Below the pieces are notes generated by a model. The model searched no databases. It was given only the letters and a program-made list of their open reading frames with translations, and was not told where the DNA came from. From the IMG/VR virus record IMGVR_UViG_2645728091_000010: a stretch of DNA of 7,321 bases, one strand, 5' to 3'. The DNA is from a virus (Duplodnaviria > Heunggongvirae > Uroviricota > Caudoviricetes). Numbering within the stretch: the stretch's first letter is position 1; each line of letters begins with the position of its first letter. Shown here one piece after another: positions 2,132-3,076 of this stretch. The translations under genes were made by a program, and so were the position numbers.

Positions 2132-2326
2132 ATGTCAACTATCATTCAGCGCGATAAACAGCCGAAAGGTGCTGGTAAGGCACCGGCATTTCAGATCCGT
2201 ATCAACCCGGAACTAAAAGAACAAATGGTTAGTGCGGCTGCAAAAGAAGGAATGAGTTTGGCTAATTGGCTTAAAGAACTAGCAAGAGCAGAACTACGCA
2301 AACAAGGTATTGAACCTAGAGGTTAA
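2132..2326 (+). CDS. Ribbon-helix-helix (Arc/MetJ/CopG-like) DNA-binding protein, 64 aa; candidate regulator or antitoxin
   Basis: ATG at 2132 with AGGT 6 nt upstream. FQIRINPELKEQMVSAAAKEGMSLANWLKELARAEL fits the beta-strand plus two-helix RHH pattern. Confidence 0.6.
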   Translation: MSTIIQRDKQPKGAGKAPAFQIRINPELKEQMVSAAAKEGMSLANWLKELARAELRKQGIEPRG

Positions 2327-2350
2327 GACTTTTAAAAGGATCTGTGAGAG

Positions 2351-3076
2351 ATGCAAAATCTAAAACGAATAAGTGAATATAATTTAACAGACAATCCTAT
2401 CCCACATTATTTCCCTCATGATAGTAGATTCCTGTCTCTACTTGGGAAATTTTCGTTCCGACTTGAAGATCTAATAGTATTTCACTCATTTGTTTATCAT
2501 ACATATAACATAAATCTTAAGGAGATACAAAAAATTGCAGACAACACTCCCCAATATAATCCAGACTTATTAGACGATGAAGTGCATGAAATGGCCTTGA
2601 TTTCTCAAGCCAGACATAGAGAGATGGTTGGTTATTATGATGATCTTAATAGAAAAGCCTCATTTTTTGCCAATGACAGTGTCGTAATTAATCTTTGGGC
2701 TATTATTGAACAGTTTAGTACCATGGCATACTCTTTGCTAGAAGCAATTATTAAAGAAATACCTGAAAATCAAGTTAAAGTTCCATATACATGGGATAAA
2801 TTAAAAAAGAAATACTTAAGTTATGGTATTGACCTCTCCCAACTTGATTCTTACGATGTCATTAACGAAACTAGGGTTTTAAACAACAAAATCAAACACC
2901 TTTATATTGTCGATGAAAACCTTGCCTCTTTTCCTTTTTTCAAGGACAAAGAGAACAAGTCATTATTAGGAATGGAATATAGGCTTCAAGATTATGTTAT
3001 TGGAACTCATAAGTTCATCGGGCATCTTTTAGAGGATTGCTCCATAAAATTAGGAAATAAGGCAGACATGATTTAA
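2351..3076 (+). CDS. Hypothetical protein (241 aa), strongly AT-rich, no recognisable domain; candidate effector of a two-gene cargo module
   Basis: Long ORF 24 nt downstream of the RHH gene on the same strand. Its composition is markedly more AT-rich than the flanking integrase and lambda-like genes. No Walker, HExxH, Fic or clean HEPN motif seen. Confidence 0.65.
   Translation: MQNLKRISEYNLTDNPIPHYFPHDSRFLSLLGKFSFRLEDLIVFHSFVYHTYNINLKEIQKIADNTPQYNPDLLDDEVHEMALISQARHREMVGYYDDLNRKASFFANDSVVINLWAIIEQFSTMAYSLLEAIIKEIPENQVKVPYTWDKLKKKYLSYGIDLSQLDSYDVINETRVLNNKIKHLYIVDENLASFPFFKDKENKSLLGMEYRLQDYVIGTHKFIGHLLEDCSIKLGNKADMI

Follow-up and report, generated by a model that had tools for sequence, protein, structure and literature searches.

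A candidate single-gene anti-phage effector with a predicted HEPN-like fold in the exchangeable slot behind a ribbon–helix–helix gene of an Escherichia coli phage satellite

The 7,321-nucleotide stretch of viral DNA analysed here (IMG/VR record IMGVR_UViG_2645728091_000010; hereafter the window) holds part of a phage satellite, together with late genes of the lambdoid prophage that the satellite interrupts. Its annotation was assembled from the table of open reading frames (ORFs), from domain scans and from the RefSeq annotation of an E. coli chromosome to which the identity is 98.7% (Table 1). The satellite is a helper-embedded phage-inducible chromosomal island (HE-PICI) of the '11capE' or E:Phage_cap_E type, which has already been published (PMC10111431). 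Two genes on the same strand, 24 nt apart, are the subject of this work: the first encodes a ribbon–helix–helix (RHH) protein of 64 residues, and the second an all-helical protein of 241 residues that is viewed here as a candidate anti-phage effector. A sequence-only reading of the same DNA had described the two as convergent with the integrase and alpA genes and divergent from the small-ORF/primase operon, with which the ORF coordinates agree, and had taken them together for an AT-rich cargo cassette in an accessory slot. The stretch that they occupy falls within the dynamic zone that has been described between the integration and replication zones of such elements (Tommasini, Mageeney & Williams, 2023; PMC10111431).

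Comparison with sister elements confirmed that the slot is variable, and also narrowed what is exchanged. Among 5426 complete E. coli genomes the satellite backbone, counted at a window coverage of at least 80%, is present in 72, and the stretch with the RHH and 241-residue genes in only four; the remaining backbone genomes, as far as examined, carry genes for a SWIM zinc-finger protein and a DUF2971 protein in the slot. The window is homologous to one such SWIM/DUF2971 variant (L002) over positions 91–2328 and 3132–7321, and to a variant carrying the defence gene PD-T7-1 (L043) over positions 2022–2326 and 3130–4761. The breakpoints found in these two independent comparisons agree, lying at the stop codons of the RHH gene (2326/2328) and of alpA (3130/3132), and the exchangeable unit is therefore 2327–3131, which holds the 241-residue gene and a hairpin. 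The cargo is thus one gene and not a two-gene cassette: the RHH gene lies outside the swap boundaries and has a GC content (0.436) resembling that of the satellite backbone (0.469), while the values for the 241-residue gene and for the prophage genes are 0.324 and about 0.60, respectively. The 241-residue gene is not uniquely AT-rich, as had been claimed, because a small ORF of the window (1198–1419) equals its GC content of 0.324; this ORF, of 73 residues, belongs to the small-ORF operon of the conserved backbone and has no family match.

The slot has been seen with the 241-residue gene, with the SWIM and DUF2971 genes, with PD-T7-1 or with nothing. Such a fixed site between core genes, with unrelated contents in sister elements, is what characterizes a defence hot spot of satellites, and a known defence system is found among its alternative contents, namely PD-T7-1 (PADLOC E value 3.3e-151); the DUF2971 protein of L002 gives a weak match to PDC-S31 (1.2e-4). 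The hairpin at the distal end of the cargo has a predicted RNA folding energy of −18.1 kcal/mol (z score −6.25), and none of 200 shuffled sequences was equally stable. It was passed over by a terminator scan, its T-run being weak, and is probably a bidirectional terminator.

Table 1. Features of the window and of the region upstream of the RHH gene
Feature	Positions	Strand	Basis or remark
Primase gene (D5_N), incomplete at window edge	18–884	−	ORF table and domain scan
icd-like/small-ORF/DUF4222/primase operon as a whole	18–1992	−	
DUF4222 gene	881–1180	−	ORF table and domain scan
Small ORFs (three)	1198–1796	−	ORF table
Icd-like ORF	1789–1992	−	ORF table/annotation
Intergenic stretch, 139 nt	1993–2131		Between Icd-like ORF and RHH gene
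GC-rich hairpin, 9-bp arms, 18-nt loop	2028–2063		Part of the backbone, between icd-like and RHH genes
Extended −10-like element TGATAAGGT	2083–2091	+	Read from sequence; no score in consensus scan
Operator-like box 1, GTGTGTACCTAT	2090–2101		Inverted repeat with 2120–2131
Sigma-70-like promoter, TTGACA-17 nt-TAGTAT	2110–2138	−	10/12 consensus match; faces icd-like/primase operon
Operator-like box 2, ATAGGTACATAC	2120–2131		Abuts RHH start codon; holds likely Shine–Dalgarno AGG
RHH gene, 64 aa	2132–2326	+	First gene of rightward unit
Exchangeable cargo slot proper	2327–3131		Breakpoints from two sister-element comparisons
241-aa gene	2351–3076	+	All-helical protein of uncharacterised family; candidate single-gene anti-phage effector
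Hairpin, perfect 12 bp, 5-nt loop	3080–3108		Between convergent 241-aa gene and alpA
alpA, excisionase/regulator	3117–3350	−	Right border of slot; Pfam Phage_AlpA 6.5e-15
Tyrosine integrase gene, 411 aa	3352–4587	−	Pfam Arm-DNA-bind_3 and Phage_integrase; RefSeq CDS; clade targeting prophage late genes (PMC10111431)
Lambda-E-type major capsid gene of helper prophage, 5′ fragment	4750–4995	−	RefSeq pseudogene 'major capsid protein, missing C-terminus'

The 241-residue protein gave no match in Pfam, PADLOC 2.0, NCBIfam or PHROGs, and profile searches thus identified no known family for a protein in which the sequence-only reading had recognized no motif. Relative to its homologues from Citrobacter and Raoultella, the gene displays a synonymous divergence (dS) of about 0.95–0.99 and a nonsynonymous divergence (dN) of about 0.11; the resulting dN/dS of about 0.12 indicates a real gene under purifying selection. 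Close homologues (46–80% identity) always occupy the same slot of diverged satellites, whose insertion sites are a prophage portal gene in Citrobacter, a prophage ClpP-protease/capsid fusion gene in Yersinia and a chromosomal site by the cytochrome bd genes in Raoultella/Klebsiella; a further close homologue was found in the Logan run assembly L012. In these satellites the gene ahead of the homologue encodes an RHH or a DUF3950 protein, and in the Yersinia element (L009) no gene was called upstream of it. Insertion-site stretches of the related satellites were located at 1–280 and 10341–11177 in L010, at 10172–10768 in L008 and at 8588–9178 in L009.

A profile search of 1.84 billion representative proteins returned 261 relatives at an E value of at most 1e-3, 96 of them at 1e-10 or below, and a later large protein search with an 88-sequence profile added one new protein among the 14 listed. 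In the family alignment, which comprises 88 relatives of 17–57% identity, Asn179, Lys182 and His183 are invariant, and Glu120, Glu173, Arg175 and Asn178 are conserved in at least 90% of the sequences; most of these residues make up the family motif (N/D)-E-x-R-x-L-N-N-x-I-K-H, while the pair Arg88–His89 is conserved among close relatives only. Scans of the 88 members against Pfam, at E values of up to 0.01 and of up to 10, revealed no recurrent family, and profiles of 10 and 88 sequences run against the PDB sequences yielded chance matches only, such as Gfh1 (E value 0.09). No match to the 241-residue protein was found by tblastn in 50,697 phage genomes. A hemerythrin-like metal site was rejected, a single invariant histidine being available, and so was membership of the new systems from P4 hot spots (Bandua, Aernus, Toga, Reve, Crouga and Hailong), whose descriptions are unlike an all-helical protein of 241 residues.

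The protein is predicted to be all-helical, with a core four-helix up–down bundle that superposes on solved HEPN domains. We propose that its fold is HEPN-like and take HEPN-like chemistry as the working mechanism; membership of the HEPN superfamily is not claimed as proven. The canonical Rx4-6H motif is absent, as the sequence-only reading had also noted: the corresponding segment reads E173-x-R175-x-L-N178-N179-x-I-K182-H183, in which the arginine and the histidine are seven residues apart. None of the 88 members matches any Pfam HEPN model, even at an E value of up to 10, and a Foldseek search of the PDB with the protein or its family gave a best E value of 0.67. PADLOC models, when run against the 88 members, matched RTasHEPN in three (1.6e-4) and CARF_HEPN in one (0.038). 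An RNase chemistry for the 241-residue protein is put forward as a tentative possibility, with the balance somewhat against it.

Two known HEPN types are instructive for comparison. HepS, encoded by the Gifsy-1 prophage (PDB entry 9oik), is a solo HEPN abortive-infection anticodon nuclease that is constitutively made and auto-inhibited, and that cuts tRNAs once a structural protein of the phage, the tail-tip protein J, has triggered it (PMC13043305). Its catalytic motif is R100-x4-H105, in contrast to the R-x2-N-N-x2-K-H of the 241-residue family, and sequence homology between the two is undetectable. The DUF4145 proteins (PF13643), with a motif of the R-x2-R-N-x3-H type, offer a likeness in motif: the MRHLRNSAAH of one such protein compares with TRVLNNKIKH in the 241-residue family, and a W-x3-E helix in the former with W116-x3-E120 in the latter. 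They differ in that Asn178 replaces the canonical arginine, and the hhalign probability is just 1%, so that the likeness is a motif lead only. The DUF4145 protein used here, of 192 residues, HEPN-type and with the segment RHLRNSAAH, is encoded beside the primase gene (4003–4581) in a Raoultella/Klebsiella satellite, L003, that also carries a 241-residue homologue; for PICIs, this mid-island position is the one from which genes of the Tai (tail assembly inhibition) defence proteins have been reported. Tai proteins occur also in phages such as phi80.

The family of the 241-residue protein is sparse yet broadly distributed. Its distant relatives occur without an RHH partner in 16 genomes, two plasmids and four metagenome contigs. 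They are isolated genes from Vibrio, Halomonas, Bradyrhizobium, cyanobacteria, Pseudomonas, Psychrobacter and the two plasmids, and their neighbours include the lgt–thyA locus (in Vibrio), toxin–antitoxin pairs such as HipBA, a gene with a RelA/SpoT domain, a DUF2971 gene matching PDC-S31 and a P4-type integrase gene. In four JGI metagenome contigs (L013–L016) a 40%-identical homologue lies 110 nt downstream of a gene for a TIR-TM protein (PADLOC E value 4.9e-80), with a RelB/ParE pair on its other side, an arrangement that could represent either a two-gene system or mere neighbourhood within a defence island. In the Halomonas sequence L020, the DUF2971 protein (9214–10023; PDC-S31 E value 9e-53) is encoded about 1.6 kb from the distant homologue and adjoins a ParD/ParE-like pair; these two protein types, close neighbours here, replace one another in the satellite slot of E. 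coli.

A functional pointer comes from the contents of that slot. The anti-phage activity of PD-T7-1 has been validated by experiment (Vassallo et al., 2022; PMC9519451). Like the 241-residue gene it is a single-gene system, and it follows an 86%-identical RHH gene by 7–22 nt and lies, in L043, between the RHH gene and alpA–int; unlike it, PD-T7-1 encodes an unrelated protein of 449–454 residues with an experimentally validated function, while the 241-residue protein is a candidate from sequence. Defence genes, both known and new, abound in the hot spots of PICIs and of P4 (PMC13586616; PMC11364771), and six of eight unknown loci chosen at random from P4 hot spots gave protection from phage (PMC13586616). 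The presence of PD-T7-1 in the slot of a sister element, together with the variability of the slot, therefore makes a role of the 241-residue gene in defence or abortive infection a reasonable inference, and we put the chance that the protein has an anti-phage role at slightly less than even.

The first protein proved to be of the RHH type, as had been read from its sequence. It matches Pfam HicB (E value 5.5e-5; 23.4 bits, the cut-off being 21) over residues 20–48 only, PHROG 228, an Arc-like repressor (4.6e-7), and, below the cut-off, NCBIfam YlcI/YnfO (9.9e-5); its 64 residues comprise a basic N-terminal arm and an RHH core, and an extension at the C-terminus for toxin binding is absent. 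Clustered at 90% identity, the RHH family of Enterobacterales falls into at least 71 groups, as against ten for the 241-residue protein, and its alleles occur in a variety of settings. One allele (P0206; 70% identical), present on at least 1000 contigs, is the only gene between the small-ORF operon and alpA, and two others (P0214 and P0193) are likewise without cargo; this layout, with the RHH gene directly before alpA, was found in 15 complete E. coli genomes at a query coverage of at least 80%. Alleles P0167 (86% identical) and P0172 (84%) are followed after 7–22 nt by PD-T7-1, and a diverged allele, with a TTG start and left unannotated, is found in the SWIM/DUF2971 variant at the corresponding position. 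The identity of the RHH protein does not track the cargo: with the PD-T7-1-linked allele the window allele shares 86% identity, but with the alleles that precede 241-residue homologues in other genera only 69–72%.

The RHH gene is a backbone gene of the satellite, probably encoding a regulator that acts as a repressor or autoregulator, and we are highly confident that the protein is not a dedicated antitoxin. In RefSeq it bears the name 'toxin-antitoxin system HicB family antitoxin', which looks like an over-propagated annotation. HicB proteins have an N-terminal HicA-binding domain. The RHH protein has none, nor is there a hicA-like gene nearby, and its identity as a HicB antitoxin was rejected.

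The region upstream of the RHH gene offers candidate sites for such a regulator. Two operator-like boxes of the window form an inverted repeat with 12-nt arms that are 92% complementary and 18 nt apart; a perfect inverted repeat of the observed length (9 nt) arose in six of 2000 shuffled sequences, and across the elements compared the figure was 0–13 of 2000. Every RHH allele has two such boxes, of about 10–12 bp and about 30 bp apart, the second of which touches the start codon, and the box sequence is specific to the allele (GTACCTAT/ATAGGTAC, ACGTACGTAC, GGTATATACC or AGGTGGTCAC): boxes of the ACGTACGTAC type are found in Raoultella and Citrobacter, GGTATATACC in Yersinia and two direct copies of AGGTGGTCAC in L002. 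An alternative role of the inverted repeat as an RNA hairpin instead of an operator is impossible where the boxes are direct repeats. One box lies within the spacer of the sigma-70-like promoter facing left and the other downstream of it. The −35 element of this promoter is the complement of the first two RHH codons, and the complement of TTGACA is kept in all RHH alleles, including that of L002 with its TTG start. Through the boxes the RHH protein may thus repress both the leftward early operon and its own transcript.

For the rightward transcript of the RHH gene and the cargo, the extended −10-like element TGATAAGGT is a candidate promoter, proposed from reading the sequence since the consensus scan did not score it; a block (C)ATGATAAGGT, GTGATAACGT or ATGTTAAGGT is found at a constant distance upstream of all RHH alleles. 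Further upstream, in the leader that separates the leftward promoter-like site from the icd-like gene, the GC-rich hairpin is kept in every related element, with compensatory changes in its arms (ACGCCCTG, ACGTCCCGAA, ACGCCCCGTA and AAGCCCG), and has folding energies of −24.4 kcal/mol (z score −3.5) on the plus strand and −16.6 kcal/mol (z score −2.8) on the minus strand. In relatives a T-run comes next to it on the plus strand, giving it a terminator-like look. Neither this hairpin nor the window as a whole matched any Rfam family, and the families covered include C4/isrK, immunity RNAs that some PICIs are reported to carry.

In several of these respects the RHH protein resembles the repressors of the Arc/Mnt/CopG type, with which it shares a length of about 60 residues, the match to the Arc-like PHROG and paired operator-like boxes, spaced by about 30 bp, at the start of its gene and overlying a divergent promoter. 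Both the RHH signature and the repeated operator-like half-sites at a promoter-like site, by which Arc/MetJ/CopG repressors are recognized, are present in the sequence. It differs from them in that the boxes predicted for the L002 allele are direct and not inverted.

Taken together, the evidence can be accommodated in a model in which an HEPN-like single-gene anti-phage effector is carried as satellite cargo behind an RHH regulator, a combined statement to which we assign an even chance. The RHH gene and then the cargo would form a rightward unit between the early operon and alpA, closed by the hairpin at 3080–3108. The RHH protein would bind the two allele-specific boxes, which overlap the start region of its gene as well as the early promoter facing left, and would act as a repressor or autoregulator of the resident state of the satellite. 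The site directly after the stop codon of the RHH gene is a swap site, either empty or occupied by one of several unrelated cargos. The 241-residue gene would be made during satellite quiescence, and be present in the lysogen, because it is presumed to be co-transcribed with the RHH gene. Its product would be a nuclease, with an RNase as the likeliest kind, that is auto-inhibited until an infecting phage activates it; it would then cleave RNA, so that the infection is aborted or blocked in the manner of solo HEPN proteins such as HepS. The rexAB genes of lambda ride on the cI transcript. The cI–rexA–rexB unit is likewise a case of exclusion or defence genes placed on the transcript of a maintenance repressor and expressed in the quiescent state; it differs in that the repressor of the present element is of the RHH and not of the helix–turn–helix type, that the element is a satellite and that co-transcription is a prediction. 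A bolder version, which we hold to be rather doubtful, is that the 241-residue protein founds a new branch of HEPN-like nucleases, marked by R-x2-N-N-x2-K-H, as a solo sensor–effector that aborts infection upon encountering a component of the phage and is tied to satellite quiescence by an RHH switch, by which the early operon would be repressed as well, and that the slot is an undescribed 'plug-in' site for single-gene defences (PD-T7-1, DUF2971 and the 241-residue gene) in HE-PICIs and related satellites.

Three other explanations of the gene pair were weighed against this model. The 241-residue protein could instead be a factor of the satellite life cycle or of helper manipulation, interfering with the helper capsid or late genes or with host defence, or else a non-catalytic helical adaptor or sensor. 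A satellite-specific role is unlikely, since the family is spread far beyond satellites, from the lgt–thyA locus of Vibrio to cyanobacteria, Bradyrhizobium, Pseudomonas and plasmids; moreover, the conservation of seven polar residues at 17–57% identity points to an active site, and a validated defence gene occupies the same slot of a sister element, and on the whole we give this explanation a low probability. It is similarly improbable that the gene is an ordinary accessory gene of non-conflict function that came with AT-rich DNA, in which case its likeness to HEPN domains would be that of a generic four-helix bundle. Least probable, and indeed very unlikely, is a type II toxin–antitoxin pair in which the RHH protein binds and neutralizes a 241-residue toxin and also autoregulates the pair, for although the RHH gene comes first on the shared strand with a short gap, the protein shows weak profile similarity to the DNA-binding domains of the RelB/DinJ, TacA and HicB antitoxins and carries its RefSeq name, and an RHH or DUF3950 gene stands ahead of the close homologues in satellites, RHH alleles are found with no downstream gene, with PD-T7-1 or with SWIM/DUF2971, their similarity is independent of the cargo, with neither co-occurrence nor co-divergence, the gene lies outside the swap boundaries with backbone GC, the protein lacks a toxin-binding extension, no RHH gene stands beside the distant relatives and the Yersinia homologue has no called upstream gene. 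The earlier suggestion of a defence, abortive-infection or toxin–antitoxin-like pair therefore survives in its first part, in that defence can be inferred from the slot context and the HEPN-like predicted fold, while the pairing and the antitoxin role of the RHH protein do not.

If protective, the 241-residue protein would represent a new family of single-gene defence overlooked by PADLOC 2.0, Pfam, NCBIfam and PHROGs, and, were its proposed chemistry true, the sequence definition of HEPN-type active sites would be widened. The RHH-led swap site also provides a simple guide to more such genes, which may be sought by inspecting whatever follows the RHH gene in enterobacterial satellites. As this RHH protein is most likely to be a satellite regulator, the propagated database name 'HicB family antitoxin' is corrected for it. 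Since the host element disrupts the capsid gene belonging to its helper, a defence gene carried there bears on the three-way conflict between helper prophage, satellite and incoming phage. Elements of this type are already known, as is the idea that satellites have defence hot spots; the 241-residue family, its non-canonical motif and, within the dynamic zone, the swap site led by an RHH gene seem not to have been described before.

The full element, of about 10.4 kb, has capsid, decoration, small-terminase, single-stranded DNA-binding protein and primase genes of its own, and splits the capsid gene of the prophage. In L001 the two parts of the capsid gene that flank the satellite lie at 2491–3279 and 13660–13905, the prophage part of the window being 4750–7321, and a 10-bp identity block, TGCTTCGGCT, is found at both junctions, with duplication of the PKH codons. 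In the window the junction between satellite and prophage (attR) lies at about 4750–4761, its block is TGCTTGGGTT, a two-base variant of TGCTTCGGCT, and the capsid fragment is followed by D-, C- and B-type head genes of the lambdoid prophage. The order int–alpA–primase, the co-oriented insertion in a late gene and the short block at both ends are those that define HE-PICIs of the capsid-E type, and the layout of a satellite within a capsid gene was rejected as a new arrangement, having been described already (PMC10111431). The mechanical ORF call for the integrase uses a GTG start at 4638 (428 residues), whereas RefSeq and all homologues start at 4587 (411 residues), and the longer form is probably not real.

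The present element shares with the published HE-PICIs (PMC10111431) a size of about 10–11 kb, insertion in a lambda-E-type capsid gene, a 10-bp identity block, the succession of an int–alpA zone, a dynamic zone and a primase zone, and capsid and decoration genes of its own. It differs in the dynamic zone, which in those elements holds genes of a Bro network and immunity RNAs; neither an RHH-led cargo slot nor the 241-residue protein appears in the text of that study, from which the words 'cargo', 'HicB' and 'antitoxin' are absent. In E. coli satellites whose RHH gene is without cargo (L033, 6093–7934, including elements of the strain E2348/69 type), a RosmerTA-like pair, with matches to RmrT (E value 1e-52) and RmrA (E value 1e-149), lies just past alpA, and defence cargo is therefore present there at a second site.

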